Below the pieces are notes generated by a model. That model did not search any database. It saw only the letters and a list, made by a program, of their open reading frames with translations, and had not been told where the DNA came from. This document shows, one piece after another, positions 6,800 through 29,993 of a DNA stretch of 33,474 nucleotides (positions are counted from its first letter, which is position 1; each line of letters starts with the position of its first letter). The DNA comes from Cladosporium halotolerans. Its lineage: Eukaryota. The DNA is taken from the NCBI RefSeq assembly GCF_011745625.1, contig NW_027191489.1, positions 186,001-219,474 on the forward strand, read 5' to 3'. Position numbers and translations under genes: made by a program.

Positions 6800-7766
6800 T
6801 CATATGAAAGGAATCCCCGTTCTCGTCCGCTTCCTGTACGCCTCGTACTCACTCCCAAAGAATTGGACCAGCGAGCGCTCCTCACCTACGATTGTGTCAG
6901 TACCGTAGTAGTCCGTTTATGCAGGCGGTGAACTTACGCTGGATCCTATCGTGGAAAAACTTCCACAGCACAACAACGTAGGCGATCAAACAAAGCTTGT
7001 TGCCCACCAAAAGCTGCGTCCCGATGGCCCACCAGAAGAAGGCAAAGTACGAAGGGTGTCTGGAATAGGCGTACACGCCTCTTGTGACGAGCTCGTGGTC
7101 GACCTTCTTGACCATCTGAGGCGTGTGGTTGAAGTTGGTGCCCGCCGTCGCCATGGCTAGACTCCTCGTGGCTTGTCCGAAAATGATAAGGAAAAGGCCG
7201 ATCGAGATCGTGATAGTATTGCAGTACTTGGCTTGAAAGCGAGGAAAAGCAAAGGTCGAGACAACGATCTCGAGCATAGCGCATGTATGGGCGACATTAT
7301 ACGCGGTACCGTTGGTGAATAGGAGGAAGCTGCTCGCGCGGACAACAGGAACGTTGTAGGTGGCGGTCGTCCAGTATTCGAGAAAGTGGAACAGACTTAG
7401 ACTGGCGACGAATGCGAAGAGTCGCCAGATCGGATAATCAAAATATGCCGTTTGCGCCCCGAGGACCAAAGAAGTAGCGAGGGCGAAACCGAGCCAGAAG
7501 GATTGGGCGCCGATGCTGGAGAGAGAGCGTTTACCATCTGGGAGGAGGGTTGGATCGTATGGGAGCGGTTTGCTGGTGAATGGACTTTGAACATCTGCGT
7601 AGTCGTACTGGATTCTGTCCGGCGTCTCATCGGTATCCTCCTTGCTCGAGTCTTGCGTCGAGCGGCGGACGGTGTTGCTGTCTGAAGAAGGGGCGAGATG
7701 GCCGTTCGCCTGTTGACCTGAGCTTTGGCCTGAAGCAGCAGACGACGATGTAGAAGGCCGTGCCAT
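6800..7766 (-). CDS. STE14: Protein-S-isoprenylcysteine O-methyltransferase; exons 7766-6938 and 6885-6800 (304 aa)
   Basis: ICMT motifs FHFLEY, AGTNFNH, HELVTRGVYAYSRHPSYFAFFWW; 52-nt intron 6886-6937 (GTAAGT..CTGAC..TAG) restores the C-terminus RIQR|EERSLVQFFGSEYEAYRKRTRTGIPFI*. Confidence 0.93.
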
Positions 7767-8047
7767 GGTTCGTTCCGTCTAGTACTCTTTTGCCGAGTAG
7801 GTGTGTCACAACAGCACCATCACCACGCGTGGATGCTTTTCTGTGTTTATTCAGGCATGTGAAACGGCTCGAAACGCCGGATGCGGCTCCGCGGCCACAA
7901 TCCTAAGGCCAAACCTTATCGCCGAGCCGCGCCTTATCTCCAGCCCCACGTCACTTCTGCCTTCGCGACAATGAAGCTTCGACGAGTACACACACTCATA
8001 CCTTCGCCGAACACAGCATAGGCGCAGGTCGCCATCTGCGTCCGGAC
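7767..8047. promoter_or_regulatory. Probable bidirectional promoter between STE14 and the HPD-motif gene
   Basis: Only 281 bp between two divergent ATGs. Confidence 0.5.
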
Positions 8048-9190
8048 ATGCCTTCAATAGCAGAGAGTAAGCGACAAGTCTCTGAAGGCTTGTCGGCTGC
8101 CGGGACCGACCACGACGCCATCCTCGCAAGCCTGCAAGACGAGATCGACAAACACAACCGTGCAACGGACTCGAGCACGCGTTCGCACAGGCGATCGAAG
8201 CGCCGGCACGACAGCGACGAACGCGACACTGAACCAAATCATCGCCGCGAAAGACACCTGCGCTTCCGCTTCAAATCCGGCGTCGAAGAGCCCCGGCGCA
8301 AAAGGCGTTCCAAGCGCTCGTACTCTTCCAAACCAACACCCGACGATGAAGAGACTCAAACCGCGCACCCATTTCCTCGCGAGCCCGCCAACCCTGATGT
8401 ACCTGACCTCCCCTCAAACACCGCCGCCTTCCAGACCTCGCTCTTCGACGCCTTGGCTGACGATGAAGCCGCTGCCTACTGGGAATCAGTCTACTCGCAA
8501 CCGATCCACGTCTATTCCCGGCCAAAAGCAGAGACCGCCACAGGCAAGTTGGAGGAAATGGACGACGAGTCATATGCGGCCTACGTGCAGCGTAAGATGT
8601 GGGAGAAGCAGCACCCGGAAGTGATGGAGGAGCAGGAACAGGCGGCGCGCAAGCGGCGCGAAGAGGCGGAAGCAAAAGAAGCGCGGCGGGAGGCATTCAT
8701 ACGCGCACGGCAGAAGGAAGCGTGGGATCGCGCAAGTCGTGCCAAGGGTACTGGTCGGAAAGACGACCCGTACGAGTACACGTTCGATTTCCGCGACAGG
8801 GACACCGAGCGCAAGGAGAAGCCGGACAGGGATCTTTACGCTCGCGCCTGGGCTTCGTACCTTGCTGCGTGGGATACCCTCAAAGCTGCACTTATTGCGC
8901 CGCCTTCTCCCTCAGCGAAGCCGCCCAAGCCGCCTTCGAAGCGCATCCCCTGGCCTACATTGCAGAACCGCCCTGCTACCAGACCAAACATTGAGGAGTT
9001 CATGCGGCACATTCCCGGCGACGGCGCGGGGACGCTACAGGCGCTGAAATTGGAGCGTGTACGATGGCACCCAGACAAAGTACAGCAGCGCTTTGGGGGC
9101 GCGGTGGACGAGGGGACGATGAAGGTCGTCACTGGGGTGTTTCAAGTAGTGGACTCGCTGGTGGAAGAGGAAAGGAAGAAAGAGGCCTGA
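8048..9190 (+). CDS. Uncharacterised protein with basic N-terminus, coiled coil and C-terminal RWHPDK (J-like / NFKBIL1-like) module (380 aa)
   Basis: Single long ATG ORF with coding-like codon use; FQTSLFDALADDEAAAYWESVYSQPIH block, IPWP motif and LKLERVRWHPDKVQQRFG. Confidence 0.8.
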   Translation: MPSIAESKRQVSEGLSAAGTDHDAILASLQDEIDKHNRATDSSTRSHRRSKRRHDSDERDTEPNHRRERHLRFRFKSGVEEPRRKRRSKRSYSSKPTPDDEETQTAHPFPREPANPDVPDLPSNTAAFQTSLFDALADDEAAAYWESVYSQPIHVYSRPKAETATGKLEEMDDESYAAYVQRKMWEKQHPEVMEEQEQAARKRREEAEAKEARREAFIRARQKEAWDRASRAKGTGRKDDPYEYTFDFRDRDTERKEKPDRDLYARAWASYLAAWDTLKAALIAPPSPSAKPPKPPSKRIPWPTLQNRPATRPNIEEFMRHIPGDGAGTLQALKLERVRWHPDKVQQRFGGAVDEGTMKVVTGVFQVVDSLVEEERKKEA

Positions 9191-9350
9191 AAGCCTTGAA
9201 GCTTTGCCGTAGGAATCTAAGCTATATGCACTGTTAGTCTCACTTCCTGACCATTCCTCTGCTGCGAATGTGTCTACAGCGTCAATTCGTCAAATCGTAT
9301 ATGCAATCGACAGTCCACCACCGTCCCGACTTCATATCTTACAAACCCCC

Positions 9351-11543
9351 TCACTTAGCTGCCTCTGGCTCCGCTTCCTTTTTGACCACAGTCTCCCCTG
9401 CCGGCGCAAACCCCTCAGGCACACCCCTCGCCGGCCTACCCATCCTCAGACTAACCGCCGTCTGTGGGCCAACCCAAGCGCCCAGAAACCCACTCCAAGC
9501 GCTACCACCAGCCACCATACGCTGCACAATCTTGTACGTCTGCAAATCTGCGTACGGCAGCCCCGTTTTCGGATCAGTGTACTTGGCCGCCCAGCCGGTG
9601 ACAGCGCACTTGGGTTTCTGTGGCGGCTCCGGGAGGGCGTCGAGTTTGTTGCGCTTGAGAACGCGGGAGAGGTAGCGGCTTTCTTCGGGCGTGAAAGGCG
9701 GGTGAGAGTTGGGAATGAGGGTTTTGGAGAGTGGCGTCTCGTCCAGTGGGCCGAATTGTGAGCTAAGGAGGCTTTTGCGCGATTTGTTGGGTGGTTGAGG
9801 GTAAGTGAGAGAGGGGAAGGAGTCGAGGACGAGGAGGGTGCGTTGAGCTTGTTCGCGAAGGACTGGCGCAGGAGGCGGTGGTGGAGCCTGAGGCGTTGCG
9901 ACTGCAGCTGGCGGTTGTGGTGTGGCGGAAAAGGTCATGGTGCCTGGGAGGACGCCAGGCTGGGAGGGTTGCATTTGTGCATGTTGGGCCACGGTTGGCG
10001 TTGAAGGTCCGGAGGGCGTGGAGAGCTGCGAAGGCTGAATTGATGTGTTCTGATGGATGGAGGGCGCCCCTGCAAAGTCTTGCTGCGCCGGTGTTGCTAG
10101 AGATAAGCCTGATGCTTCGGTGTGAAAATTAGCAGCGTTGATCGCTGGAGCACTTGGTGTGTATGGAACTTGATCCGGTTCCGGCTTATCCTCAGCCTGA
10201 GCTGCGTATTCGTGAATTCCAGACAGCCAGGTATTGGAAGGCTCAACAGGCTCCTCCGCAGGCTTCTCCCCTGAAGGCTCGATAGGAAGCTCTTCTGGGT
10301 CGGCACTCTGATCAGCCGTCTCTGAAGGTTCTCCGAGTGTCGGTGCGTCTTCCATACGCTCATCCGCGGTACCAGGTCTTGATGATTCTCCGCCCCAATC
10401 AATGAGGTCCATAGCTGCCTTCTCGTTTTCCTTTTTCGCCGCTTCAGCTTGTTCAGCTTCTATTCGTGCAGCTTCAATGCGCTCGCTCTCCTTCCGCTCC
10501 TCTTCCAGCCTCTCTTCCTCTCGTCTTCTGGCCTCCTCGGCCTGTTTTCTCGCTTCTTCCCTGGCTTCCTCTTCTCTCTTCTCAGCCTCCTTTCGGGCCT
10601 CCTCCTCTTTCCTACGAGCCTCCTCCCTCGCCTCCTCTTCCCTTTTCTTCGCTTCAACCTCATACTCCTGCATTGTCTTTGACCCAAGCCTCTTAACCTT
10701 CAATTTGCCATCTTCAAAGACTCCACTTCCACTCCAGGTCCTCATAACCGGTCCCTCAATATCCCTCTTCCTCTTCGCCGCAAGCGCCTCCTCCCTTAAC
10801 CGAATCCTCTCCGCCTCCTCCCTCTCCGTCCTGCCCAGCTCTTTAGCCGTCTCCTTCTCAATCCGTTTACACTTCTCAAACCGCTGCTCTTGCGTCAGTG
10901 GCAGCCGATCCGTCATGCGCACCCTCTTCGCCGCATCCTTCATCAACTTCTTCTGCTTCTCACTCCTCTGCGCGCTCTCCTTCAAATTCGCATGGATAAC
11001 CTCGCGATTCTTCACCGCCAGCTCACGCCTACTCTGCCTCGTAGGTGCATCCACCCCCTCCGGCAACCAATTACTCCTCTCGCTCTTCTTCTTTTTCTTC
11101 CTCCTCTCCGCCTCCTCCGCATCGCCCTCCCCCTCCCCTTCCTCAACAACCCTCACCCTCTTCTTCGGCACCAGCCCGGGCACCCTCATGCGCGCATCCA
11201 TCGCCTTCCTTTGCTTTCGCCCCTCCGCGCGCTCCGCCCTCTTCAGCTCCTTCTCGCCCTCGTCCTCGTCGCCCTCCGCATTCGCAGCGTCCTCATCGCT
11301 CTCGTCGCTCTCCATAGCCGCGTCGTCATCTTCTCTGTCCGAAACAGCATAGTCCTCCGCATCCTCGGCCTCGTCCTCGGCGAGTAGCTCTTTCTGCAGT
11401 TCTTCGTCGTCGAGGTTCGCGCGCAGCGTCGCGTACAGGTTGCCGGCTGTGCGGCGCTTTGCGCGCGTGGCGACGAGGCCGGAGGTGGTGAGGTCGTCGG
11501 GATTATCATCTTCGGAGTCGGAGGTGTTGGAGGAGGAGGACAT
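9351..11543 (-). CDS. VPS72: YL1 nuclear protein / SWR1 complex subunit Vps72 (Swc2), about 730 aa
   Basis: N-terminal RAKRRTAGN motif followed by an acidic tract; C-terminal YL1_C-like KCAVTGWAAKYTDPKTGLPYADLQTYKIV. ATG at 11543 (MSSSSNTSD) preferred over the longer ORF start. Confidence 0.88.
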   Translation of the reverse strand: MSSSSNTSDSEDDNPDDLTTSGLVATRAKRRTAGNLYATLRANLDDEELQKELLAEDEAEDAEDYAVSDREDDDAAMESDESDEDAANAEGDEDEGEKELKRAERAEGRKQRKAMDARMRVPGLVPKKRVRVVEEGEGEGDAEEAERRKKKKKSERSNWLPEGVDAPTRQSRRELAVKNREVIHANLKESAQRSEKQKKLMKDAAKRVRMTDRLPLTQEQRFEKCKRIEKETAKELGRTEREEAERIRLREEALAAKRKRDIEGPVMRTWSGSGVFEDGKLKVKRLGSKTMQEYEVEAKKREEEAREEARRKEEEARKEAEKREEEAREEARKQAEEARRREEERLEEERKESERIEAARIEAEQAEAAKKENEKAAMDLIDWGGESSRPGTADERMEDAPTLGEPSETADQSADPEELPIEPSGEKPAEEPVEPSNTWLSGIHEYAAQAEDKPEPDQVPYTPSAPAINAANFHTEASGLSLATPAQQDFAGAPSIHQNTSIQPSQLSTPSGPSTPTVAQHAQMQPSQPGVLPGTMTFSATPQPPAAVATPQAPPPPPAPVLREQAQRTLLVLDSFPSLTYPQPPNKSRKSLLSSQFGPLDETPLSKTLIPNSHPPFTPEESRYLSRVLKRNKLDALPEPPQKPKCAVTGWAAKYTDPKTGLPYADLQTYKIVQRMVAGGSAWSGFLGAWVGPQTAVSLRMGRPARGVPEGFAPAGETVVKKEAEPEAAK

Positions 11544-11880
11544 TTTGGTGGTGGTGTGGGTGTGTAGTGGGATGAGGAGGGTGATGGGAACGCGGGTTTG
11601 GGAAAGTGAGGAAGTTCGCGAATCTGGGGTTCGGGGAAGGAGCGATCGGCATGTGACAGCGAGCGGCGATCGTAGGGCTGGTCGCTGAGCCGGGGATCTA
11701 CTCAACACTCCCTTACTGCATGGCATGGTTGAGACGTGAACAGTGAATCGAATCATCGTTGGACTTGAAAGTTTCTACCGTGCATTATTCGTGTGGGTGG
11801 CAACTATCTATTACACACTACATATGGTCTGTGGTCTGGTCCTTCCGTTCATCAGGGCCTCAAGATTGCGAGGCACGAGA

Positions 11881-13911
11881 TCATCGGACCTCGATCTTCG
11901 CGATCTCCCCTTTGGCGTTCTGCCACTCGTGCATGCTGCGTTTGCTCCACTCGAGATGAGCGCGGGCGAAGTTAAGCTATGTGCTAAGTCAGCAATATGT
12001 TCGAAAGGATAGCAATCCGGAGAAACCCCAGATGCATGGAAACAAACTTACCATGTAATTTGTCAAATCTTCCTCTTTCTCCCCCTGGAAGCGCCTAAGC
12101 TCCTCCATCACACCCGAGCTGGCATCCGTGACATCCTTTTTGCTGACCTCGAGGGCCTCCTCTAAATGGCTGAGACTCTCTTTCGTCTTACCAAGAGCAT
12201 CTCTTCTCGCACGCTCAGGGTCGGTATCCGTAACGCCCTGAATGGCGTGCGTAAGGCGACCGAAGAGCTTGTTTGCGACACCGCTGGTGGCGCGACGGTG
12301 CGAACCGTTGGTCGGAGGAGACGAGGGAGGCGAAGAAGGATATCCTGAGCCGGGCTCGCCCTGCTGAGCCGAGGGCACGCTGGAGCTGCGCGTGTTGGGA
12401 GGGAAGTCGGAATCGACGGAGTTATTGTCTTCTTCGCGAGGTTGTCTGCTGCGCTCGGAGTGGCTGGCGCTGCTTGCGCTGCGGCGGGGCGTGGAGTGCA
12501 TGCCGGAAGAGGACATGTACTGCTCTATGCGCTTCGCTTCGGCCTCGGAGCGTTCCAGCTGCTCGAGGGTCATGCGTTTCTTCTCCAGCTCGTCGCGAGT
12601 CATCTCCTCTTGAACACGCTTGAGGACACGAAATTTGAGTACGCTGCGCACGACGCTCGCGAACTGTGCGCTTTCGCGCATGGGCTCTGCGAAGCCGGCT
12701 GAGAGTGCTGAACCCATATCCCTCGAGGCGATGTAAGTGTAGTCGCAGGCTTGACCGGTCTTCTCAATCGCATGTGCTACACTTGCGCTCTGCTCACTAA
12801 GCGAGAAAGCGTTGTAGCGTGCACCAAGGTCCATCAAGTCATCGCCAAGGCTGTACAAGTGGCGCAAGATTCGCTGGTTTACCTTCTCCATCGAGCCCGT
12901 GAGAAGAGTCTCCAGCTCCTTGGTGTTGTTCTCAAAAGACGAGAAATAAGGGTCCATCTCATCTTCTTGGAGCTTCTGTTCTTTCGGAGGAAAGCGAGCA
13001 TATTGGATGTTCGGAGTACTGTGGGACGCAGCAGAGGGCAGCGTCGTTTGCGCCGGCGGAGAGACAGGCGTACCACTGGAACTGACAGAACCCGATCTCA
13101 GCTTCGCGCTCTGACTAGGCACAGGCAGCCACTGGTGGCCTTCAGTCGGGTTCGCCGGATCAAGAGGAGGCGCCTTCAGGTTGTTCTTCGGAATCGAGGC
13201 CACAGGGTGCGAGTGCAGGACCTCGCTCCAACTGGCATTCGGGTCCAGGAAGCGCCACCACACACCGTCCTCCCGCACATGCTTCATGCGCCTGCATCTG
13301 TTTAAGAACGTCGCAAGCATGCGCTGCCGCAACTCAATGATGCCCGCATCTTCCTTAGCCTTCGTGGGCTTTGCCGCGTAATCCGCAAACGAGTGCTTCT
13401 CGGGAATCGGCGGGATGATAAGGGTGGGATGCAGGGCGACCAAAGTCGCTCGCAGCGACGCGAACTCCGAGTATCGCCTCCTGACCTCCAGATCGCCCGT
13501 GCGGATCGTGTACGTTATGTAGTTCCCGCCGCCTTCGTGGTTCTTGCCGGCGTGCGTAATTTGGATGTCCAGCTCCGGGTGTTCCCACAGTATTTGTTGA
13601 ATGCGACTGTCGTAGCCGCCCTTGGGCGGATCGATCTTGGGACCTTGCGGGCGGTCGTCATCAAGCTCTTCGTCGCTTAGTTCTGCGCTGCGTGACATGA
13701 AGTGAGGGCGCTGGTCTGGTGACGAGGCCTCAGAAGGTGGGGTGGACGGGCGGTTGAAGGCTGGTTCGGTCAGCCATTGTGTTCCTAAGGGTACATGCGC
13801 GGCTGTGGCAGTATGCAAAAGCTTAGACTTACCAGGACTCTGGATATCGCTGCCCTCACTATCCCGGCGCTGGAATGAACCGTACGGATTGTTGTCTTCG
13901 TCGTCCCACAT
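11881..13911 (-). CDS. SNX41: PX-BAR sorting nexin (Snx41/Atg20 family); exons 13911-13833, 13760-12052, 11976-11881 (627 aa)
   Basis: PX domain YITYTIRTGDLEVRRRYSEFASLR..LHPTLIIPPIPEKH..RMLATFLNR; helical BAR region; introns 13761-13832 (GTAAGT..CTGAC..CAG) and 11977-12051 (GTAAGT..CTGAC..TAG); last exon LNFARAHLEWSKRSMHEWQNAKGEIAKIEVR*. An in-frame ATG also lies at 13932. Confidence 0.9.
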
Positions 13912-15035
13912 GGTTGCGAGGACCTGATGCACTGCCTGGACTCAAGGTATTTGCGTATTCCGACCTGCGCAAGAAAGGACTGTCGAGGCCGAGGCGACAA
14001 AGTAAGGGTCTGGTAGACTGTGTGATTTGCGGGAGATGCTTCGTTTAGCAGGCTGTTGAGCGATGCCTGCTGCGGTCGAGCTGGGGCGGCGGTTGGTTGC
14101 TGGCCTGGGCGTTGGAGCTGCTTGCCGACGCCGAACTGCGACTGGGGAGTGACGTAGCCTCGTGAGCGCCTTCTACACTAATGCGAGAGTTTGTGGCATG
14201 CTTCGTGTTCTCTATCTGCGAAAAGCATTCATGAGATGCCCTTATTGCTGATGCTTTTCGAAATAATCGTAACAATCAAGCCTTTGCGATGTTATGCGCT
14301 CCGAAATGAACGAGTTTATAGATACATATCCTCCGCTGAACTCTCTAAATTGCCTTTGCTCGATGCTCGTGGTGCCACTAACTTCCCTGCGATCACAACG
14401 TTGGCCCAGGGCCACTTCTTGTCATTGGAAAGTTTGGAGGCTTCGCGGGCTTCCTACTTGTGATTATGCTAGTGTGGTTACCATATCAGGCTATCGGAGC
14501 GAAAATCTGTTTTTAGCAGTCTAGAGAAAAGGGTAGCAGCGTACTGTTCATTTCCATTCAGAGAGCGCTGAGAAACTTGGGTGGACCACATAATGACAGA
14601 GCCCCCCGTTTTGCAGGGCCGTGGGAGTTCAGACTTCAATTCATTCAACGTATGCTGAACCTCGGCGTTTTAGATCTACATTCAGGGATCGTGAGTACTC
14701 GGTGAAGCCTTATCTCTGCTTGCCTATACAGCATACTTCATCATTTCCTCAGTCCTCACACTGATCACGTGAGCCCTCGCGAGCCGCGCCTGCGCGTGAA
14801 CAACCTTCAAGAGGCGTGTGCTTGACTTCTTTACATCACCACACCCATGCATCCACGACGAATCCCACTTCAAAACACAATCTCTTCTTCAAGCAAAATC
14901 GGTACTCGGACAAAAACGCCCTTCTATTCGCTACAATCCGGCCAACTTGCCGGACCACAGACAGCCTTAACCGGCACAGCTTTCCACTCTCGCACTCGAG
15001 CTTCATCACAACAAAGTGCGGTTCGCACAAATTTG

Positions 15036-15668
15036 ATGGTCCAGACGCGCAACATGCCAATCAATCGAGAACCTCTTCTGATTCGATTCTTCGATCCATC
15101 AATTGCCTCGCCAGACTCCAGAGGCCGCACCCTCGCCACCGTCCTGTCCTCGTCCGACAGGCAGCTCGAAGCCTCCCACGATTACATTCAAACCCTGTTC
15201 CCACTTCCAGAAGGCAGCATGTTCAACTCCGCACCTCTCATCACACCGGAGATCCGCGAAGCCTTCCTCTCACAGCCTCAGCTTCGCGCCAGTTTGCGCA
15301 ACGCTCTAGAACGCATGCTCGCATTCTACGGCCTGCAGCTCAATGAACGACAAGTACCCAATAGCTCATCTACCAAGGACGAAGTTACGCGCGGCCCGAA
15401 CTTCACATCGAACTCGAAGAACTGGGTGACTCGCTTCAACCACAACCACTTGCGTATTACGCGCATACTGCGCTCGCTGAGGGTTTTGGGCCTCACATCT
15501 GAAGCAGAGGCACTGCACGATTTCCTTGCCTCTGATGTGGATGTGACGAGGCTCGTATCAGAACGTAGCCAGATGTATTGGCGCAGAGCGACGCACAGGG
15601 AGCTGTATCTACCGTCTGACGAGGAAGACAGGAACGCCGAGGGGATCGCTTGGTTAAGGGGGAGCTGA
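15036..15668 (+). CDS. Opioid growth factor receptor conserved-region (OGFr_N) domain protein
   Basis: Motifs DSRGRTL, LEASHDYIQTLFPLPE, RMLAFYGL, NHNHLRITRILRSLRVLG. Start uncertain: in-frame ATGs at 14847, 15036 and 15054. Confidence 0.85.
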   Translation: MVQTRNMPINREPLLIRFFDPSIASPDSRGRTLATVLSSSDRQLEASHDYIQTLFPLPEGSMFNSAPLITPEIREAFLSQPQLRASLRNALERMLAFYGLQLNERQVPNSSSTKDEVTRGPNFTSNSKNWVTRFNHNHLRITRILRSLRVLGLTSEAEALHDFLASDVDVTRLVSERSQMYWRRATHRELYLPSDEEDRNAEGIAWLRGS

Positions 15669-16477: not shown

Positions 16478-19400
16478 TCAAAAGAGACGCCTCCAGTGTC
16501 CTCCGCTTTTTCCAGCTGGCGCGGCCGCTTGGTCGCCGTAGTTCGAGCCCTTGTTGCCCCAGCTGCTCTGCGATGCATCGGCCGAAGCGGCGGCAACGGA
16601 AGCGTCGTCCGGAGCGTCGGCAACTGGAGCTGCGTCCAGTGGAGCAGCGTCTTCTGGACCCTTGGCCGGAGCGGCATCGATCGGAGCGACCTCGACCGGA
16701 GCATTGGATGGAGCAGCATCGACCGGAGCCTTGGCCGGGGCGGCGTCAACTGGATCTGCGTCGACTGGGGCAACATCAACTGGAGCAGCATCCGCTGAGG
16801 CCTTAGCCGGGGCAGCATCATTTAGAGCTGCATCCATCGGAGTATTGGTCGGAGCAGTTGCAGCCGGCATGCCGTAATCAGCAGGCTTGTTGTCCCAGCC
16901 TCCAGTCACACCGCTGTGCGGCTCGTATGCGCTCGGCTTGGCTCCGCCATCAGACCAAGAAGTGATCGTAATCGTGGCCGGAGCGGCACAGCTAGCCTCA
17001 GCCGTGTAGGTCATCTGGATTTCCTTGGTCTCGTAGCGAGTCTCGGTCTCGACCTTCGTCAGGACGCTGGCCCCGCCTTCTTTGGTGACAAAATGCGTAA
17101 CCGTAGGGCCCTCCTGGTCTTTTGTGACGGTAGAGCCTGGCAAGAACTTGGTTTCATACTCTGTGGTCGTTCTATCGCTGCCCGCTCCAGACATGAACTT
17201 GGTTTCGTAAAGCGTGGAGTACTGCGTGACGACAGAACCATCTGCTTGAGCCGTAACGGTTGAGCCTGGGAGGAATTTGGTCTCGTACTTTGTGAAGGTC
17301 TTGTCCTCGCCCGGGGCGGTGATCACGCTGGGCGAGCCGGACATAAACTTGGTCTGATATTCGGTAACTGTCCGCTCGCTGCCAGGGGATCCAGGGGTTG
17401 TAAAAATGCTAGTTAAAGTCGAGCCGGGCAGGAACTTGGTGACCGTGGAAGCAGGCGTGGCTGGCGCGACGAGATCCGAACATGTGGAAATAAGGATGGT
17501 TGAGATGCTGCTGATAAACTGGGTCTGGACGTCGCCCTCCTCGGTCGAGACCACGGTTTCGTAGAAAGTCCGGCCGGGCTGCATTGACACGATCGTGCTC
17601 GTGACGGGAGATTGGATTGTCTTGTAAATGAATTCAGTTGAGCCAGGAAGCGTCGAGATCTTCGTGACGGTGCTTGGGGCTTGGTACACAGTACTGATCT
17701 AGACTCAGGGTCAGTAAGATGTCAATAGAAGCTGCTGCATGCTATGGTCGTGTGAAGCAACAGAATATCACGTACTTCGGTGTGAACTGAGCTGATTGTC
17801 CGGACTTCTGTTCTCGTAATCGTCGAGGGCGCTTGCGTAATGAATTGGGTCTTGAGTAATCATTAGCTATTGTCTAGACTGAATGATAAGCGAGGAGCTC
17901 ATGCCTGGGTAATCGGCGACGCGATTGTGCGATATTCAGTCTTCAAGACCGTAGAGGGCGCCTGAGTAATGACTTGAGTCTGATAAATCGTGGATGGCGC
18001 TTTTGTGATCGTTGAGACCTTGGGAAAATGTTAGCGGTCATTTCAATGACGTTCAAGGCTTGTTGCAAGCGCTGACTTGGGTGAGCGGCGAAGTTATCGT
18101 ACGATATTCGGTCTTGAAAACCGTCGAGGGCGCCTGAGTGATCGTCTGGGTCTTGCATGTTGATCAGCTACCGCTCAAACTGAGCTCATAACAGCAAAAT
18201 GGTACCTGGGTGAGCGCCGAAGTTATCGTTTGCCGAATTGTGGACGTTGTTGTCGACGGCGCTTTCACGAGTGTCGTTGTCTTGAGCCAGAGTCAGCGAA
18301 GCGCCACTACTTTTGCCTCTCACTTTCAACGAAGGCGTGTTCAACTACTCACTTCCGTGACAACCGAATTGATCGTCCTATACTCAGTTTTTGTGGTCGT
18401 GGAAGGCGCTTGGAATGCGGTCTTGGTCTGGAAGTGGTCAGTCTGGCTTGGACACGCTCTAAAGATATCTTATGATTGCTGAATGCAGTGGCATGTGGGT
18501 AAAGCTAGCCAAAGGCAGAAATCTTGTACCTCAGTAAGCACGGAATTGATTGTCTGAGTAACAAATCGAGTTGCAGTTGACGGGGCAGCAAAAATTGTGC
18601 TAACTCGAGTGACTTGGGAGACGATAGTTGAAAAACTTGTCGATGTACGGGTCGCCCAGTGAGTAACGCAAGTTGTTGAAGTCTTAAAGATAGTAGATGG
18701 GGCCTACGGCTGGATTAGCAACAACAGCTGCCTTCTCGTGTTGCTCAAAGCGACGTACCTGGGTGTATATCGACACGGAAGTCACCGGCGTGGTTACAAA
18801 CGAAGTTGACACAGAAGTAGAAGCTGGAATTTGTTTTGTGATGAAGATAGTAGTCGGAATTCCAGTTTGGACTGTTGAAAAACTTGTCACAGTAGAGGCT
18901 TAACAAAGATCAGCGATGGTTCCGTGGTGGACGGTCTAATACAGCTCACCGGGTGCAAAGAAAGTTTCGTGAGACGTCAGCGTCGAAGGAGCAATTGTTC
19001 GCGTCAGAGTTGTTACGAAGTTTGAAATAATTGTGGTACTGCGGTACACTGTAGACGCAGGTGCTTTGAAAGTACTGACAAGAGTTTTCGTGCTAGCTGG
19101 CAAAGTCCGCACTTGCGTAGAAGTGTACGTACTGGGCGCCATTGTCCGTGTGAGCGTTGACGTGAACGGGATTGTAATTCGCTCCGTGTATGTCTGGACA
19201 TTGGCTAGATTCGTTTAGCAGGTGATTTTCAATCGGCCCCGCGATGGGTGGAAGCCATTTGTTGACTTACCTGGCTGGATCTCAGTCTGAATGACGGTCT
19301 TTGCTGGGAGTGTTGACCATGACGTGAGTGTCGTTCCTAGGATCAATGAGCGGCCGAACGGGAAAGGGAAATGACCATGTGAAATACCTGGCAAACGGGT

Positions 19401-20572
19401 CGTTTGGGTAAGATACTCGGTCTTTTGCTGAGTTGAGGTCTCGGTCACCGTTCTGCCTATTTGTGAGATCAAAAGTCAGCCCAAGAATCAGCCTGGGAGC
19501 TTATGGGTGGTTGCTTGTGCGGTAGCCCTGCATGCTGGTCGCTGTTTATTTTGTGACCCGGCTGCATAGTTGGGAGTTCGCTCCGAGCTAGTATCGAGCG
19601 GTTTGTTGAACTCTCTCAACGACGGCCCTGGATTCTCTTGTGCGAGCGCCCATGGTAGGAGCATCGAGGGGTAGGAGAACTCGTGATCCCCTGACGCGCT
19701 GAAAATTCTTACCTGGTGCAGTGTGGAAAATTGTGGACGTAAAGTCACGAGTCTCAGTCTCAGTAATATAGCAGGTGGATCCTAAGCCCAATTTAGCGTC
19801 TGCCTTGCATTAAACCAGAGCTGTTTCGTGAGGTCCTACCGGGCAATGTCAGCACAGAAGTCATGGTCGTGGTTTCATCGTTGAAACGCGTGGAGTACTC
19901 ATATTGTGTTGTGGTAATGAGCTCGGTCTCTTCGCGAGTAATCGTGTGATTGTAGCCCAGGCCTTGCTGCGTGATATAAATCGTCGTGGGCGCAGCCGGC
20001 TCTTTCACAGTCTCATAAGCTGTGATCACCGATGTATGAGCTGGTCCGGCAGCGGTTATAGTTGACCCTGGCAGGAACGAAGTATGATCTTTGCCAGAGA
20101 TGTACACTGTGGAAGCAGAGCCGTCAAGGGTTACCGTGGATGCTGGCAAAAACGAAGTATGATCTTTGCCAGACAAACATACGGTGGAAGCAGAGCCGCC
20201 AATGGTCAGGGTTGAGGCAGGAAGGAACGAAGTCTCGACAGAACCAGAAAGATAGACGGTAGAAGTAGATCCAGGCACAGTCGAAACTGAAGTCTGGTAG
20301 ATCGTGAGCGGCGAACAAGTGGCGCTAGCCTCCCACCCACTGTGATCCTCCGAAGTGTAGGCGTGAGGAGTCGTCGAAGTCATGGCATTATCCCAGGAGC
20401 TACCATAATCCGAAGGTTGGGCCCCAGAATCGGAGTTCTGACCCCAAGAACCATCGTTCGAATGGCCAGGCGACCCAAAGGAGCCTTCTTGACCTCGGGC
20501 GAAGAGGTTTCGCGGAGAAGCAAGGGCCTTTCCTGCGAACAGACCCAAGACAAACAATTGTGGAGCAGTCAT
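16478..20572 (-). CDS. Secreted Thr/Ser-rich tandem-repeat (mucin/adhesin-like) protein, 13 exons, 1046 aa
   Basis: Exons (minus): 20572-19840, 19781-19713, 19456-19388, 19336-19271, 19204-18950, 18898-18759, 18703-18530, 18427-18353, 18280-18206, 18151-18077, 18018-17905, 17850-17776, 17698-16478; total 3141 nt, one stop-free frame. Each intron has a donor, a branch-like motif and an AG. Signal-peptide-like start MTAPQLFVLGLFAGKALA. The ORF track shows this gene only as fragments. Confidence 0.82.
16608..16820 (-). repeat. Ala/Pro/Asp pentapeptide-like repeat (DAAPV / DAAPAKA) near the C-terminus of the Thr-rich protein
   Basis: Translation DAAPAKASADAAPVDVAPVDADPVDAAPAKAPVDAAPSNAPVEVAPIDAAPAKGPEDAAPLDAAPVADAP; degenerate ~15-nt DNA period. 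Confidence 0.85.
17776..18604 (-). repeat. Array of exon-encoded 25-aa repeats (consensus TxTxxQAPSTxxKTEYRTIxSxxT[QE]) separated by introns
   Basis: Exon translations: TKTAFQAPSTTTKTEYRTINSVVTE; TTTLVKAPSTTTSTIRQTITSALTQ; TQTITQAPSTVFKTEYRTITSPLTQ; (VSTITKAPSTIYQ)TQVITQAPSTVLKTEYRTIASPITQ; TQFITQAPSTITRTEVRTISSVHTE. Confidence 0.85.
20060..20285 (-). repeat. Three 75-nt (25-aa) tandem coding repeats in exon 1 of the Thr-rich protein
   Basis: AACGAAGT recurs at 20076, 20151 and 20226 (period 75); the first two share AACGAAGTATGATCTTTGCCAGA; peptide SGKDHTSFLPASTVTLDGSASTVYI-like. Confidence 0.9.
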
Positions 20573-22729: not shown

Positions 22730-23655
22730 ATGTCCATCAAGTGAGTTCCCGCCACCTCAACTAATGCACAACATCGCCGCCACCACGCCATGTCTATCCC
22801 GAAGTGTCGGCGCATCCGCTCACATATCACTAGCTGGGTCATGCTGTCGCCTGCGACCAGCCCACCTTTCACGCCTCTACCAAACGAACAGACTCTCTTC
22901 ACTTCGCCTCCCCGCATATCACTTTCTATCACGAACCCATCACATTACCCTGGAAAACAACAACAGCCTTTCTCGGCGTCAAGCAGCAGGTGCGAAATCC
23001 ATGTCTTGAAGTAGTACCAAGAGGTCACACTGCTGACGTCGGAATCAGTGGTCTTGTATATCTCACGAATCGACGAGTAATATACATCCCGGACAAGCCC
23101 ACGGAGAAGCTCCGAAGCTTTGCCGCACCTATATTGAACGTCCACGACTCTCATGTCACTGCGCCTTTCTTTGGACCCAACGTGTGGCAGGCGCTGCTGC
23201 AGCCTGTGAATGGCGGCGGCATCCCTACCCCTTCAGGTGGCGTCGTAGAGCTGAAACTCACATTCAAAGATGGCGGTGCCTTCGACTTTCACACCCAATT
23301 CGAGCGCGTGAAGGAGCGCTTGCAGCAAGCCGTAGAAGTGTCACGCATTGATGGTGATGGAGCCGGCGGCTCCGCAGGCGCGATGAGCGGTGTTGATGTG
23401 AGCAATATCAACTCGGAAGATCTACCTGTCTACCAGGAGCAGAGCGATGGCCCGCTTTTGCCTCCCATAGCTTCGGCCATGCCTCAACAGCCAGTCCAGC
23501 AGCCAGAAGACACCCCACCCGGAAGCCTCCCTCGGCCTCGACCCACAGATAATGCTCTCAGCCCCCCTGATGAGCCGCCACCGGGCTATGAAGAAGCGCA
23601 GATGGCAACACTGCACGATGAAGCGGCTTGGAGGGAGGAGGCGGAACGAAGATAG
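22730..23655 (+). CDS. WW-domain-binding protein 2 (WBP2)-like PH/GRAM-fold protein with PPxY motif; exons 22730-22740, 22834-22989, 23049-23655 (257 aa)
   Basis: 11-nt first exon plus introns 22741-22833 (GTGAGT..TAG) and 22990-23048 (GTGCGA..CTGAC..CAG) give MSINWVML..FTPLPNE..SGLVYLTNRRVIY..APFFGPNVW..LTFKDGGAFDF..PPPGYEEAQ. Confidence 0.88.
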
Positions 23656-24520
23656 TCTGAGCTTCTTTATGCTGTACGGTAACGAAGGCACGGGTCATGT
23701 TTGCAAGCGAGATACCACAATATCTAGACAACTATGCATTAGTCTGCACGTATGAACGTTTGGGTCATTCAAGTAGAGATAGATGCACAAAACCCACGTG
23801 GGTTTGACCCCTCCGCGCACGCGTTGTTCGTACGTGCATGCTTGTTTTCGAAGCAGAGCACCGACATGCCATGGCGGAACCCAACATGAGATCATGTTCG
23901 TACCTACATTGCGGCAGATAGATTGGCTCAAGTGCTCAAACCCTATAGGTAGGGCAGGATGCATGCGGAACGTCTCACGTGGCAGTGCCGGACCACTGCC
24001 ACCAGTCTGACGCTGAGTCTGAAAGGCATATGAGATGAGACGATAAGCTGGCATTTGGTGGCAATTCAAATCAAGAGCTTATCAGCATCTGTTTTGTCTG
24101 AGAAGACAAACTGTGTCCCTCAATTCGCGAGACATCGTCTCCCAAAATCCTCTTGCACCCTCGACCCGGCCGACCCTGGACCCTTGAGAGCGACATCGCC
24201 CGTGCAGAAGGAACACTTGACTTCTGCCCAAGGCTGCCCGTGACCGCCTATTTTTCCCGCAGTCCAACACATCGCCGAGCCACGTGAGAGCCTTCACGAG
24301 GCATCTGGCAAGCAATCACGCCTCGAGGCAAACGTTTGTGCGCTCCCGTCCCCGCGGTCACAGTCCACCGTCTGGACCACCGCCGCACGCGAGCAGCACT
24401 TGCGCACGGCCCTGCCCTTGACTTCGACACACCACAGCTGTGCCCATTGACCAAGCGGCGGCCTCCTCCCCCTCGCACCCCACCAACACCACCAAGGCGC
24501 AACTACACAGGGCGACGCGC

Positions 24521-24604
24521 ATGATATCAAAGGGCGATTTCCCTGCGCGCCGCCAACGCACCCCTACTCACCCCACACCCGCGGAGTCGCCGGGCATCAC
24601 GTAG
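24521..24604 (+). promoter_or_regulatory. Candidate uORF (27 codons) ending 6 nt before the SAPS start codon
   Basis: ATG 24521, TAG 24602-24604, same frame as main ATG 24611; peptide MISKGDFPARRQRTPTHPTPAESPGIT. Whether it is transcribed is unknown. Confidence 0.4.
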
Positions 24605-24610
24605 CCCACC

Positions 24611-27600
24611 ATGTTCTGGCGCTTTGGCGGCTACGCCAGCATCTCCACACTCGACACGATCCTCGACAAGCCAGACGTCACCGTCGAGGAGCTGCTGGAC
24701 GAGAGCGACCTGATTCAAGAGCTGAAGCAGCAGAACAGCAAGCTCGTTGAGTTTCTGCGGGACGAGCCGGTGCTGAAGAAACTCCTGGATTATGTGGTTG
24801 CTGAAGAGGAACCCGAGGTGCCCAAAGAGAAGGAAGGCGACGATGCATCCAAAACTGAAGAAGACGGAAGGACGGGCGGGATCCCGTTCTTCGGCAGAGG
24901 CAACGCGCGCTCCCGCTCGATATCGCTGAGCAAGAGGAGTCGGAGCGACGATGCCGAGACAGAGCACGAGAAGAAGGAGGCGCAGCGTAAGAAGTACGCC
25001 TACGTCGCGTGCGAAGTGCTGTCCTCGGAAGTCTGGTCGATCACTGAGGCGATTATGGAAAACCGCGAACACCTGCGCCAGTTCTGGCAGTATATTCACC
25101 GCGCCGCTCCTCTGGACCCCTTGCAGGCTGGATACTTCACAAAGGTCAACGAAGCATTGTTGGACAAGAAGACAGAAGAGATGCTGGATTTCTTCAAGTC
25201 TCTGGATGGAATCGTACCAGCTATCCTGCAGCATGTCGATTGCCCGATGGTCATGGATCTTTTGCTCAAGATCATCTCATTAGAGAAGCATGAGGGCGGC
25301 GAGGGTATCGTTGACTGGTTGCAGTCGCAAGACCTGATCCCTCTGTTGCTCGAATTTCTGTCACCAGAGCACAGCTCTGCGACTCAGACCTCGGCTGGCG
25401 ACTTCCTGAAGGCAATCATCACCATTTCTGCGAATGCGACTACACAGGACCAGTCCGTCATCGGGCCCAATGAGCTGACGAGACAACTGGTTTCGGACAA
25501 ATGCATCAAGACCCTGATTGATGACATGCTACGAGGAGGCAACCCGCTTACTGTCGGCGTCGGTATCATTATTGAAGTGATCCGTAAGAACAACTCAGAC
25601 TACGATCTCGACAATCAAGTCGGCCCTGAGCCGAAGACATCCGATCCTATTTACTTGGGCACACTGCTCCGTCAATTTGCGAACCACGTTCCGGACTTTA
25701 TGAAATTGATCCGCTCAAAAGATTCGAAGAAACCCGACCTCAAAGTTGCGTTTGGCGGCAAGGTCGAGCCTCTTGGCTTTGACCGTTTCAAGACGTGCGA
25801 GCTCATGGCCGAGCTGCTGCACTGCAGTAACATGGGCTTACTGAACGAGCGTGGCGCCGAGGAAGAAGTCCGCAAGCGCGACGCTGAGCGCGAACAGCTC
25901 AAGGCCGAGGGCAAGCTCATCACACCTAGAGCTCCGTCGAGCCCCACCAACGGCAACAGTCATGAAGAGTTTGGCAGCTCAGTGGACTCACACGGCTTCC
26001 ACCATGCCGAGAGGCCGGCGATGGACGAGCTCGACGAAGCGCCCGAGGAAATTAAGAAGCTCGAAGTGCAGAACGCGAGCGACGAGGATGGCTTTGAGAA
26101 GGTGGCTTCTCCTGACGATCTTCATGAAGATGTGCATTTTGACGACTTTAACGAACGCATTGCCGAGACCGGCCTGCCCGCTCTGGAGAAGGTTGATAAG
26201 AGGCAGCCCGAGGCGTCTCCTCCAGACGCTCAGGACCCCGACATCCCTAGACCTCTTTCGCCTTCAAAATCAAAGTCGCCGCCGAAGCCCCAGTTACATT
26301 TCGACCCGCCTCCCACGCAGGCAGCAGACTCGCCCACTACGGCGGGCGTCACAGAGCGGATTGGCGGACTTGAGATGGATGAGGATACCGTGATGACCGA
26401 GTTCGGTGAGGATACCGCCGACAACTTCGACGACGATGGCCCTTCTGAGCTCGAGAAGGAACTGGCTAAGGCGGAAAGGCCGGCGCCACTCTTCGCTCGC
26501 AAGGAGACTTCGGCAGCAGACGATGTTGACCCAGTTCATGGTGGCAAATCGCCTGTTGAAGCAGAGGACGTTGGACAGAGCGTCGCAACGCTGCAAGGTG
26601 ACAACTCGACTTTGTCTAACGGGGAGCGACCGCCATTCGACACAGAAGCGGATGGCAGCCCTGTGGTCGGCGATCTACTCAAGATTCAATTCGTTGAGCA
26701 CCACGTTGTGCCAACAATTCTAGTAAGCTTTTCACTTGCTAGCGATATGAAACCCCAGACTGAATACTTACAATCATTCGCAGGACTTTTTCTTCCGATT
26801 CTCATGGAACAACTTTTTGCATAACGTTGTCTACGATGTAGTCCAGCAAGTATTCAACGGCACTCTTGATCGGGGTTACAACAGGACCCTGGCCTTGGAT
26901 CTTTTCCGCCCTATCGAGCTCAAGGACGGCGAAAGCGCCGAGATTGCTGGATTCGCGTCCACCAAGGACATCACCGATCGCGTCCTCGATGGCCAGAAGG
27001 CGTCTGACGAATCTCAGCAGAAGCGCAACATGCGCCTTGGCTACATGGGTCACTTGACCCTGATCGCTGAGGAGGTTTGCAAATTTGGCAACCGCCTGCC
27101 CCCTGAGTCGTTGGACCCGATCGTCTTCGAGCGTGTCGGGAGAGAAGAGTGGACCCAATACGTGGAGGGTGTGCTGGCCGAGACGAGAGACAAGGACAAT
27201 GCTGTCCTCGGTGGCGTCAGACCTGAGAACGCCATGCAACGGCCGATGAGCATGGGCGGCCCAGGCGGAATGCAGAGCAGTTTCAGCACAAACACTGCAA
27301 ACACTCTTGCGAGTGCCGGTATTGGTTCTGGCGTCGCGCCCCAAGACAGCCTGGCCATGTCAGAGGGCACTGTCGGCCAATCCTTCGAGGTCAACTCGGG
27401 CACCATGCTTAGTGGCTTCGGCGACGGCGACGACGATGACGATGATGAGGATATGGAAGACCACGACGCGCGGGATCAGGAGCGCAGGGGTTCTGCGGGC
27501 TCTGCCTTCTCGGAAGACGAACAGGTCGGTGAACTCTCTTTTGATGATGTTGACATGGACTATCGATGAGCCGACATGACCCTACCCTGCATGCATGCAT

Positions 27601-28702
27601 ATACCTCTTTGTTGCGCCCTTCTTCATTTGTGTTTAGTGTTTTCTCTTTACCTTGGAGGGTTTTCCTTTTGTGTAAGGCATCGGCAGGAGGACGCTGGCA
27701 GCATCGGCGAAGAGCAAGGCGAGCGAAGGAGTGTGCGAGCTTATGCATGAGGAAAAGGAAGCCTGTAATACGGAACGCACACATCGACAAGAGCGAGGAA
27801 TGCTTTCATGAAAATTCTGCAATAGACGTATCGTGGGCAAAAGAGAACACGGCCGGGGAATGATCTTTTCTTTTCTTTGGCTCGATCTTCTGATTAACAC
27901 TTTCCCTTCTTTTTCCTATGTTCCACGGCTGCTGCCAGCGCACTGCGCGGTTCCCCCTTCCGCTTACGCTGCGAGGCGCCGCCAGAACGCCAGCGTGCGG
28001 TCAGCACCTTCTTCATCCTCCCGATCCTACGCCACCTCACGGTCATGTCGTTGCACACATCACTTTTGCACCGGAAACAAGCATCATTCTCGGGGACGGA
28101 AAGGGAAAGAAACTTAAATATAGAATCCTGGAAAGACATACTAACACCACCTCTCACAGGACCCCACCGACCCATCTTCAACCACCGACACACCCGACGC
28201 CTCTAACCCCGGCATCCCACCACCCCTCAACATCCCGCCCTCGCGCGCCCGCCGCCAGCTCGCCGTCCGCCTCGCGCAGCGCAAACAAGCCGCCGAAGCC
28301 GCGGAATCCACGGACCCGGACGCCGCAGACCTGTCCGCCGTCGAGACGGCGCAGAACCTGCCCGAGGAGCCGAGCGAGCTCGAATCGCTCGCGCCCGCCA
28401 GCGAGCACGAGCTGCGCGAAGCAGGCCTGCGAGTCGAGAGCGGCGTCGGGCGCTCCGGGGGGTTCTTTGGGAGCGACGACGACTCTTCGGATGAGGAGCT
28501 TGAGTTGGGCGGAGGGGTGGCGAGGGACGATCCGAGGTTTGCGCGCAGGCCGAGCACGACGGAGGCGAAGGAGAGGAGTCCGTTGGATGATGGGGATGAT
28601 GTTGAGGAGGAGGCGGGGTTGGCGGGGAAAGGCAGGGAGAGTAGCGGGAGTGATGAGGAGCAGTTGGTGGAGATCAAGCCGAGGCGGACGAGTGGGAGTT
28701 GA
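24611..28702 (+). CDS. SIT4 phosphatase-associated protein (SAPS family; Sap155/185/190, PP6 regulatory subunit); long form exons 24611-26722, 26784-27524, 28160-28702 (1131 aa); short form ends at 27569 (965 aa)
   Basis: MFWRFGGY start, LLDESDLIQELKQQNSKL, PLGFDRFKTCELMAELLHCSNM, FFRFSWNNFLHNVVYD, RLGYMGHLTLIAEEV are SAPS-family motifs; intron 26723-26783 (GTAAGC..CAG); second intron 27525-28159 (GTCGGT..ACTAAC..CAG) joins in phase 0. Confidence 0.9.
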
Positions 28703-28946
28703 GGTGGATGAGGAGGAGAGGGGCGGGACGCCTTGCATGTGCACATGTTGTGAATGGGCCTGACGCGATATGCATTGATATGAATAGGCATGTCGGCTGA
28801 AGGGTTCGTTAGCGGTGTTGATAGATCTTTTGCGTTATACCATGTGAAGTTTTGATGATGAGATGAGATGAGACTCGCAATCATTCGGACCGAGTGTCGT
28901 GCGTACTGTTAAATCGCTCGAGTTCAGGAAAGCTAACATTGCCAAC

Positions 28947-29993
28947 CTAACACGCCTCCACGGCCGTCGCACCAACCCTCTCCTCCAACACCGGCTCAGG
29001 CTCATCATCCTGATACTCGACCCAAGTGCCCATCTTCCTCCTGACATACTCGCCGTAGACAACCGCGTCATCGCCATCGACGCTCTTCACCACACAAGCC
29101 TCGCCAGGCTCGAAGAAGAACGGCACGCTGAAGCGGCCCATGCCCTCTCCGGCGTTGGCGCCACCGCTATTCGTGCGGACGCGGTGCTTAGTGGCGACGA
29201 ACTTGCCGCCGCTGACCTGCGCGAGCAAGTCGCCGATGTTGACAACGATGGAGCCCGGGACGTACGGGGCGGGGACCCAGTCGCCGGCGGAGTTGAGAAC
29301 CTCAAGGCCGCCCGTGGGATCCTGGTGCAAGAGGGTGAGAATGCCGGAGTCGGTGTGAGGGGTGCAGCAGAGCTTAGCATCTTGGTTCGAGGAGTCGCTT
29401 GCGGCGGATGGTTGCGGTGGGTAGTGGAGGAGGCGGAGGGTGGAGAGGGAGTCGGTAAGGTAGTGAGCGAAGTGGTCTGCTGGTTTGTTGAGCGACACGG
29501 CAAGCAGAGACAGCATTGTGGAGGAGAGGGATTGCAATTCGCTATAGAAGGTTTCAAGGCGCTCTCGGGTGGGCTGGAACGATGCAGCTGAAGGCCACAC
29601 GTTGGATTCGGCGAGATTGAACTTGCGTGGGCGGTTGGATGGGTGCTGTGGCAAAGGCGCTTTGGGTCCGACCTCGAGGCCTTCTTTGAGGTTGTCTTGT
29701 TGGCCGGGTTGCGTGGGGAAATAGCCGCGGTAGGTGTTCTTGTTCTGCTTGGAAAAGGTCTGTTTGGCCAATTCCATCTTCTCGGACTGAGGCAGGGAGA
29801 AGAATTCGGATGCTAAGCCGAATACATCCTCGTGAGAGAAGGACAGAGGCGGATTAATCAAGTACGCGAAGCCAGTGGTGGCAAACACATTGTACAGGTC
29901 CTTGCTGAGCTCCAGGAGGTCAGAAGGAGAAGGGGACTGTGCAGAAAGCACACCGAGGTCGATGATTGGGAGTGAAGAGAACGAGGTAGTCAT
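28947..29993 (-). CDS. 2-oxoglutarate/Fe(II)-dependent dioxygenase, IPNS/DIOX_N family (348 aa)
   Basis: LPIIDL..GFAYL N-terminal domain; LRLLHYPP, HTD (HxD), VNIGDLL, HRV and RFS (RxS) motifs. ATG at 29993. Substrate unknown. Confidence 0.93.
   Translation of the reverse strand: MTTSFSSLPIIDLGVLSAQSPSPSDLLELSKDLYNVFATTGFAYLINPPLSFSHEDVFGLASEFFSLPQSEKMELAKQTFSKQNKNTYRGYFPTQPGQQDNLKEGLEVGPKAPLPQHPSNRPRKFNLAESNVWPSAASFQPTRERLETFYSELQSLSSTMLSLLAVSLNKPADHFAHYLTDSLSTLRLLHYPPQPSAASDSSNQDAKLCCTPHTDSGILTLLHQDPTGGLEVLNSAGDWVPAPYVPGSIVVNIGDLLAQVSGGKFVATKHRVRTNSGGANAGEGMGRFSVPFFFEPGEACVVKSVDGDDAVVYGEYVRRKMGTWVEYQDDEPEPVLEERVGATAVEAC

Follow-up and report, generated by a model that had tools for sequence, protein, structure and literature searches.

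A Cladosporium halotolerans gene with one 25-aa repeat per exon and an array that probably changes by whole exon+intron units

The DNA analyzed here is a stretch of 33,474 nucleotides (nt) from Cladosporium halotolerans (contig NW_027191489.1, positions 186,001 to 219,474 of the forward strand), which is called the window below and whose own numbering is used for all coordinates unless a locus is named. The minus strand of the window carries a gene of 13 exons and 12 introns, which encodes a Ser/Thr-rich repeat protein of 1046 amino acids (aa). The gene model was rebuilt by joining open frames at GT/GC..AG boundaries. The coding region starts with an ATG at 20572, ends with the stop codon at 16478-16480, and contains no internal stops. 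A preliminary description of the locus had claimed a set of exon lengths in which exons 2-5 were symmetric in phase 1 and six array exons were symmetric in phase 0. The rebuilt model gave the same lengths, symmetry and phases, and the plan of the exons recurs in the relatives. The features are listed below, with joints seen in spliced contigs of one sequencing run (X21) and with the corresponding exons of homologous metagenome loci (L004, L008 and L009), all of which are described later.

16478..20572, minus strand: whole coding region, an open frame for a putatively secreted Ser/Thr-rich repeat protein of 1046 aa
19840..20572, minus strand: exon 1, 733 nt, with a hydrophobic signal-like N-terminal segment and intron-less 25-aa repeats
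18950..19781, minus strand: phase-1 symmetric exons 2-5 with their introns; exon lengths identical in L008 and L004
19781-19713, minus strand: exon 2, 69 nt, phase-1 symmetric
19456-19388, minus strand: exon 3, 69 nt, phase-1 symmetric
19336-19271, minus strand: exon 4, 66 nt, phase-1 symmetric
19204-18950, minus strand: exon 5, 255 nt, phase-1 symmetric; joint across intron 5 in X21
18759..18898, minus strand: exon 6, 140 nt, whose length alone among the internal exons is not divisible by 3 and which moves the phase from 1 to 0; 140 nt also in L008 and L004
18530..18703, minus strand: exon 7, 174 nt, which opens the phase-0 array and whose last 25 aa are a repeat; homologous exon of 162 nt in L008 and L004
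18353..18427, minus strand: exon 8, 75 nt, one 25-aa repeat; hidden Markov model match of 56 bits
18206..18280, minus strand: exon 9, 75 nt, one 25-aa repeat that is more diverged than any other copy; joint to exon 10 in X21
18077..18151, minus strand: exon 10, 75 nt, one 25-aa repeat; X21 joints on both sides
17905..18018, minus strand: exon 11, 114 nt, a partial repeat of 13 aa and one full repeat; X21 joints on both sides; homologue of 108 nt in L004, L008 and L009
17851..17904, minus strand: intron 11, 54 nt, a GC-AG intron; X21 joint 17850/17905, whose plus-strand ends are CT..GC
17776..17850, minus strand: exon 12, 75 nt, one 25-aa repeat; X21 joints on both sides; no counterpart at that position in L004, L008 and L009
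16478..17698, minus strand: exon 13, 1221 nt including the stop codon; it carries repeats that lack introns, a conserved C-terminal region with Cys, an Ala/Pro-rich repeat and, at the terminus, a Trp-Arg-Arg motif

The four 75-nt exons hold exactly one 25-aa repeat apiece, just as had been described, and further copies of the repeat end exons 7 and 11. The core of the repeat is Gln/Lys-Ala-Pro-Ser-Thr, followed by a stretch similar to Thr-Glu-Tyr-Arg-Thr-Ile. The repeat exons of the window are 45-76% identical in DNA, and the introns of the array barely align with one another; the repeat units are old. Their divergence is too great for Tandem Repeats Finder, which detected no array with an exon+intron period in 17699-18758. 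A profile of the repeat gave no match outside the gene anywhere in the 33-kb window. Tandem repeats without introns are also present in the gene. Exon 1 contains one at 20068-20233 (minus strand), whose period of 75 nt (25 aa) equals that of the exon cassettes, and exon 13 contains an Ala/Pro-rich tandem repeat at about 16582-16860 with periods of 15 and 27 nt.

Introns 1-5 are in phase 1 and introns 6-12 are in phase 0. Intron sizes are 51-102 nt, with intron 2 (256 nt) as the sole exception. A CTRAY-like branch motif is present near the 3' end of 11 of the 12 introns, and the nearest match in intron 3 is CTCAT. Four introns of the array have in common the 3' end AAG, which is an uncommon form, and the donor of intron 11 is GC, not GT, a detail that was absent from the preliminary description. 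Of the 11 internal exons, all but one have a length divisible by 3, for which the chance would be about 1 in 10,000 if the lengths were independent, which is untrue of duplicated exons. At the ends of exons 1-5, a Pro codon is followed by a Gly or Ala codon, and each exon stops after the first base of the latter. Because this codon is split in the same way at each end, exons 2-4 (23, 23 and 22 aa) form a second series, in phase 1.

Contigs of four sequencing runs (X10, X19, X20 and X21) were compared over 4251 nt of the locus. X10 is a DNA contig, and the contigs of X19 and X20 run through introns, i.e. they behave as DNA. X21 is represented by nine contigs, three at identities of at least 99% and six at 95-99%, with coverage gaps at 18246-18671 and 19240-19665. 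Spliced X21 contigs matched introns 5, 9, 10, 11 and 12 to the base (5 of 12), with joints at 17698/17776, 17850/17905, 18018/18077 (listed as 18015/18074, the cut being shifted by +3), 18151/18206 and 18898/18950. The remaining 7 of the 12 introns had no spliced X21 contig. Exons 9-10-11-12-13 were joined in this order. No exon-skipping joint was found in the contigs of the four runs, which miss rare isoforms, and X21 did not cover exons 7-9. One X20 joint omitted 193 nt at 16504-16698, inside the repetitive tail, and was not interpretable.

The strain indels followed the gene model. Nine indels were listed in the four runs. Seven of them would shift the frame, and all seven map to predicted introns (17744, 18291, 18466, 18469, 18931, 19381 and 19599, in introns 12, 8, 7, 7, 5, 3 and 2, respectively); the two in-frame indels, of 27 nt and 15 nt, are both situated in exon 13. 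Of the 4251 nt of the aligned locus, 954 are intronic.

To find relatives, exon 13 was searched against 1.8 billion representative proteins at a threshold of E <= 1e-3. The search returned 26 matches, of which eight were taken as true relatives (P0001, P0002, P0003, P0005, P0006, P0010, P0012 and P0025), all of them fragments or short forms. Sequences were inspected for nine of the 26 matches, and the remaining matches were judged by the matched span of the query. Most of the other matches covered the Ala/Pro-rich tail only (residues about 270-390 of exon 13), and P0023, an unrelated long repeat protein, was dropped as a relative. P0001, which is 96% identical, is the last exon read from an internal Met; therefore, the searched public collection contains no full-length model. 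Queries with exon 13 and exon 5 against longer proteins only gave no match. In the searched public protein collections, the gene is found only as its last exon (P0001 and P0028), in open reading frames (ORFs) of 368-403 aa, and the multi-exon model is apparently missing.

P0025 (402 aa, on a contig of 3337 nt) has an N-terminus similar to exon 1 (47% identical, E 1e-58), which joins the C-terminal region directly; it has neither the middle part of the gene nor the beginning of the last exon. P0025 may represent a transcript form or a short paralogue without introns.

Metagenome loci were found with a pattern from the conserved start of exon 13. Nine loci were recovered, with identities of 47-54% over 100 aa; among them, L005 and L006 are nearly identical, and L003 coincides with a part of L004. 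All 21 full-length repeat matches in the nine loci have AG upstream and GT downstream (17 distinct matches after removal of L006 and L003). L008 and L004 contain the complete gene. These two loci were searched exon by exon, using only the exon translations of the window, splice dinucleotides and phase, and the assembled open frames encode 839 aa (L008) and 877 aa (L004). Exons 1-7 have lengths of 643, 69, 69, 66, 255, 140 and 162 nt in both loci, so that exons 2-6 have the same length and phase in the window, L008 and L004. Exon 1 of the two loci is 50-52% identical to exon 1 of the window, and the last exon has 849 nt in L004 and 804 nt in L008, compared with 1221 nt in the window. The 75-nt repeat within exon 1 has more copies in the window and P0025 than in L008 and L004. 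The exons that lie between exon 7 and the last exon are as follows.

L008: 54, 75, 75 and 108 nt
L009: 54, 75, 75, 75 and 108 nt
L004: 48, 75, 75, 75 and 108 nt
Window: 75, 75, 75, 114 and 75 nt
L001, L002 and L005: 75, 75 and 75 nt, then one shorter exon whose start is not fixed

In the window and in all of these loci, every array exon after exon 7 is a multiple of 3 and every intron of the array is in phase 0. In the intron that follows the 108/114-nt exon, the donor is GC in the window (17851-17904, minus strand), L008 (9948-10000) and L009 (1393-1445), and GT at the same site in L004, L001, L002 and L005. The rare GC donor type recurs at one homologous site.

The X21 transcripts, the strain indels and the relatives are three independent lines of evidence, and they confirm both the one-repeat-per-exon observation and the gene model. 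The gene is real and expressed. Its short introns with branch-site motifs point to a filamentous fungus, and the closest ESM Atlas clusters are from Ascomycota.

The regions on both sides (882-15668 and 22834-32510) contain housekeeping genes in long uninterrupted frames, which code for YL1, a PX-domain protein, SAPS, DnaJ, ICMT, an OGFr_N-like protein and a 2OG-Fe(II) oxygenase. Since the frames of these neighbors are uninterrupted, the 12-intron gene is conspicuous in this neighborhood for its density of introns.

The number of 75-nt exons varies among the relatives, with 2, 3 or 3+1 exons. L008 and L009 are 88% identical over the array, with 92.4% identity in exons (447/484) and 83.1% in introns (271/326), and their differing codons comprise 26 synonymous and 9 non-synonymous changes. 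The only large difference between them is a block of 136 nt in L009, which consists of one 75-nt exon and one 61-nt intron. Both ends of the block are inside homologous exon sequence. Such a block is the product expected of unequal crossing-over or slippage between adjacent units; it alters the exon count and the intron count by one each and leaves the frame intact. The difference of exactly one unit between L008 and L009, together with the varying exon number, indicated that, over evolutionary time, exon+intron units recombine unequally and the array thereby changes in length.

The units were also compared within and between lineages. Identity of the repeat exons is 73-90% within L004/L008/L009 and 64-82% within L001/L002/L005, and it is 48-66% between the two groups or between either group and the window. 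Paralogous introns are 75% (L004 r1/r2) and 74% (L001 r1/L002 r2) identical, compared with a shuffled baseline of 54 +/- 5%. The higher similarity within groups suggests that the units, introns included, were duplicated or homogenized after the lineages had split.

Strains differ from one another in another part of the gene. X10 is diverged from the window by 3.5% over the 4251 nt, and the differences consist of 149 substitutions and one 1-nt gap; therefore, X10 has the same exon count as the window. Nor did the contigs of X19 and X20 show any indel of exon size in the array. The strains differ in length, in frame, within the intron-less Ala/Pro repeat of exon 13, where 27 nt are missing at 16582, 15 nt are inserted at 16745, and 105 nt are reduced to 15 at 16754-16860. 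L004 and L008 have no long Ala/Pro repeat in their last 60 aa. The preliminary description had proposed that the length of the protein can be tuned by recombination and that exon number should be compared among strains and relatives. This proposal stood over evolutionary time, as exon number differs among relatives and by one 136-nt unit between L008 and L009, but it was not supported at the level of strains, because the 3.5%-diverged strain has an identical exon number and the variation is found instead in the intron-less repeat of exon 13.

The encoded protein contains 20% Thr and 12% Ser (32% together), six Cys residues and one N-glycosylation sequon. Its N-terminus is hydrophobic, and its C-terminus is hydrophilic and basic. 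The last 20 aa have a mean hydropathy of -0.78 and end in the tail Trp-Arg-Arg-Leu-Phe; a hydrophobic C-terminus of the glycosylphosphatidylinositol (GPI) type is absent, as judged from hydropathy and not by a dedicated GPI predictor. A Trp-(Arg/Lys)-Arg-x motif (16481-16495, minus strand) is present in all of the full C-termini, namely those of the window, P0001, P0002, P0003, P0012, P0025, L004 and L008. In the relatives it forms the very end of the protein, and in the window it is followed by one more residue. The motif might be a processing or sorting signal. Going by composition only, the protein is probably secreted and heavily O-glycosylated, and would be an extended protein of the cell surface or matrix without a GPI anchor.

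We consider it likely that the gene encodes a secreted repeat protein whose array of exon+intron units is altered by unequal recombination or slippage, and that the array is spliced constitutively. The array would arise and change by unequal homologous recombination or replication slippage between adjacent exon+intron units, with one 75-nt exon and one intron gained or lost in each event. Since an exon would be gained or lost together with its intron, the frame and all splice sites would stay intact. The introns would be removed constitutively and singly by intron definition. They would travel with the duplicated unit, and would not be there for the purpose of exon skipping.

Several points weigh against this explanation. 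On the side of splicing, an X21 contig at 19677-19840 is unspliced through intron 1 into intron 2 and ends at the last base of exon 1, which could reflect retained introns, pre-mRNA or DNA in the run. Introns 1, 4 and 6 are supported by consensus signals and conservation only. Contigs lose rare isoforms and cannot establish that splicing is constitutive, and for the introns that lack spliced contigs we infer it. On the side of the array, the similarity of units within a lineage could come from homogenization or from independent expansions. A tblastn search with four neighbors of the window gene found no neighboring gene shared with the nine loci; therefore, the loci are called homologues of the same architecture, not proven orthologues. 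On the side of the protein, neither fold models nor protein families lend support to the role at the surface. In a Pfam-A hmmscan of exons 1, 5, 7 and 13 and the nine small exons, no family scored above its cut-off. AlphaFold models were unusable, with pLDDT values of 28.9 for the N-terminal part of exon 13 (7-row alignment) and 34.8 for exon 1 (4-row alignment). The Pfam matches below cut-off were weak and comprised Extensin_1 (15.3 bits against a cut-off of 105), DUF3060 and DDA1, and the best score in the ESM Atlas was 0.81, below the usable level.

An alternative to constitutive splicing is that the exons form a splice-tunable cassette array, in which regulated skipping of symmetric exons varies the number of repeats and the weak GC donor of intron 11 is a possible control point. 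The preliminary description had also suggested that length is tuned by splicing. Each of exons 7-12 can be skipped in frame, the GC donor is found after the 108/114-nt exon in L008 and L009 as well as in the window, and the architecture has been kept across lineages with about 50% identity in protein. The X21 contigs, however, gave the suggestion no support, as they join exons 9 to 13 in order, and the four runs contained no skip joint, within the limit that contigs would miss minor isoforms. The homologous donor is GT in L004, L001, L002 and L005, and therefore the GC donor is not conserved. The sizes of the introns, 51-102 nt with one of 256 nt, are as expected under intron definition, a mode of splicing that has been argued for fungi in passages of a study of alternative splicing in 23 fungal species (PMC3925392). 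In the event counts of that study, intron retention accounted for 61% and skipped exons for 3% of alternative splicing events (PMC3925392). The abstracts of two other papers agree with this in general terms (PMC6142364, PMC12861292). We regard tuning by regulated skipping as unlikely. It seems slightly less likely still that the intron-per-repeat layout is under selection for such in-frame skipping, with shorter and longer stalk isoforms as the outcome and the recurrent GC donor as the switch. If this were true, regulated skipping would amount to a metazoan-style cassette-exon system in an intron-definition fungus.

Another explanation concerns the origin of the introns, which, instead of descending with the duplicated units, may have originated separately in each repeat, through insertion at a recurring proto-splice site or through intronization of alternate repeat copies. 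The intron occupies the same codon position in each repeat, the introns of L001, L002 and L005 are 73-75 nt long, which is about the length of a repeat exon, and the array introns of the window barely align mutually. When introns were compared with repeat exons, however, the best z was at most 2.6 in 19 of 19 introns, whereas pairs of exons gave z values of 11.6 and 12.5 within the lineages of L001 and L004 and 3.5 for a pair from the window. As the introns are unlike the repeat exons, there is no sign of repeat copies turned into introns. Paralogous introns within a lineage are 74-75% identical against the baseline of 54 +/- 5%, the indel between L008 and L009 comprises exon and intron together, and the uncommon AAG 3' end is found in four array introns of the window. 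We find an independent origin of the introns improbable, and a little more so than selection for regulated skipping.

It is hardly credible that the locus is no functional gene but a pseudogene or a set of chance open frames: although public protein collections carry only the last exon as a 368-403-aa ORF and no protein family matched, the transcripts are spliced, the strain indels respect the frame, the frames of 839 and 877 aa are intact in relatives, and synonymous codon changes exceed non-synonymous ones by 26 to 9.

In the usual description, the repeats of fungal surface proteins form arrays that lack introns and vary through recombination, and fungal genes are intron-poor with rare exon skipping. 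Here, a fungal gene family has kept a layout of one repeat per exon across lineages that are about 50% identical in protein. L008 and L009 provide a concrete fungal case in which the number of introns has changed through duplication or deletion of a tandem unit. Because intron-bearing and intron-less repeat arrays are present in the same gene, the gene is a natural test bed for the effects of introns on array stability, expression and isoform output. Public ORF collections miss this gene family almost entirely, since the last exon is the sole part that they call as an ORF.

The gene can be compared with three known systems. The yeast adhesins of the FLO and ALS groups contain intragenic tandem repeats whose copy number is changed by recombination. 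Similarly, the product of the window gene would be a secreted Ser/Thr-rich protein with central repeats whose unit number changes by recombination, and the gene contains, in addition, repeats without introns whose length differs in frame between strains. Unlike in FLO and ALS, the repeats of the window are separated by an intron after every unit, and the repeat exons are of old age and diverged (45-76% DNA identity). In Pfam, ALS proteins are marked by an N-terminal ligand-binding domain and a tandem-repeat model, and flocculins by a PA14/flocculin N-domain and repeat models. No ALS ligand-binding or tandem-repeat model, PA14 model or flocculin model matched the exons that were scanned against Pfam-A. 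In further contrast to the GPI wall proteins of the ALS and FLO groups, the window protein has no hydrophobic C-terminus for GPI attachment.

Some ascomycetes have introner-like elements, in which near-identical introns form families and occupy non-homologous sites throughout the genome. The window gene resembles them in having many short introns in one fungal gene. However, its introns are at homologous sites of a duplicated unit and are not near-identical, as compared within the window and the relatives.

The third system is that of animal extracellular-matrix genes, which have one repeat per symmetric exon, such as the 54-bp exons of collagen, and tandemly duplicated exons. The window gene shares with them one repeat per exon, a single intron phase in each array, and gain and loss of exon+intron units. 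It differs in that it belongs to a fungus and lies amid the long uninterrupted frames of its neighbors, and in that its introns are 51-102 nt long under intron definition, in a group of organisms in which exon skipping is rare according to the splicing counts reported in PMC3925392. A search of one open-access full-text library found no fungal precedent for one repeat per exon. In the window and its relatives, homologous adjacent exons are multiples of 3 and have one phase, which places the gene among the tandemly duplicated symmetric exon arrays. Copy-number change of a whole exon+intron unit, another mark of such arrays, is observed in L009, which has one more unit of 136 nt than L008. As to alternative inclusion of the duplicated exons, a third mark, no skipping joint is present in the contigs of the four runs, which lose rare forms. 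The architecture of this gene is an unusual fungal variant of a known gene layout.

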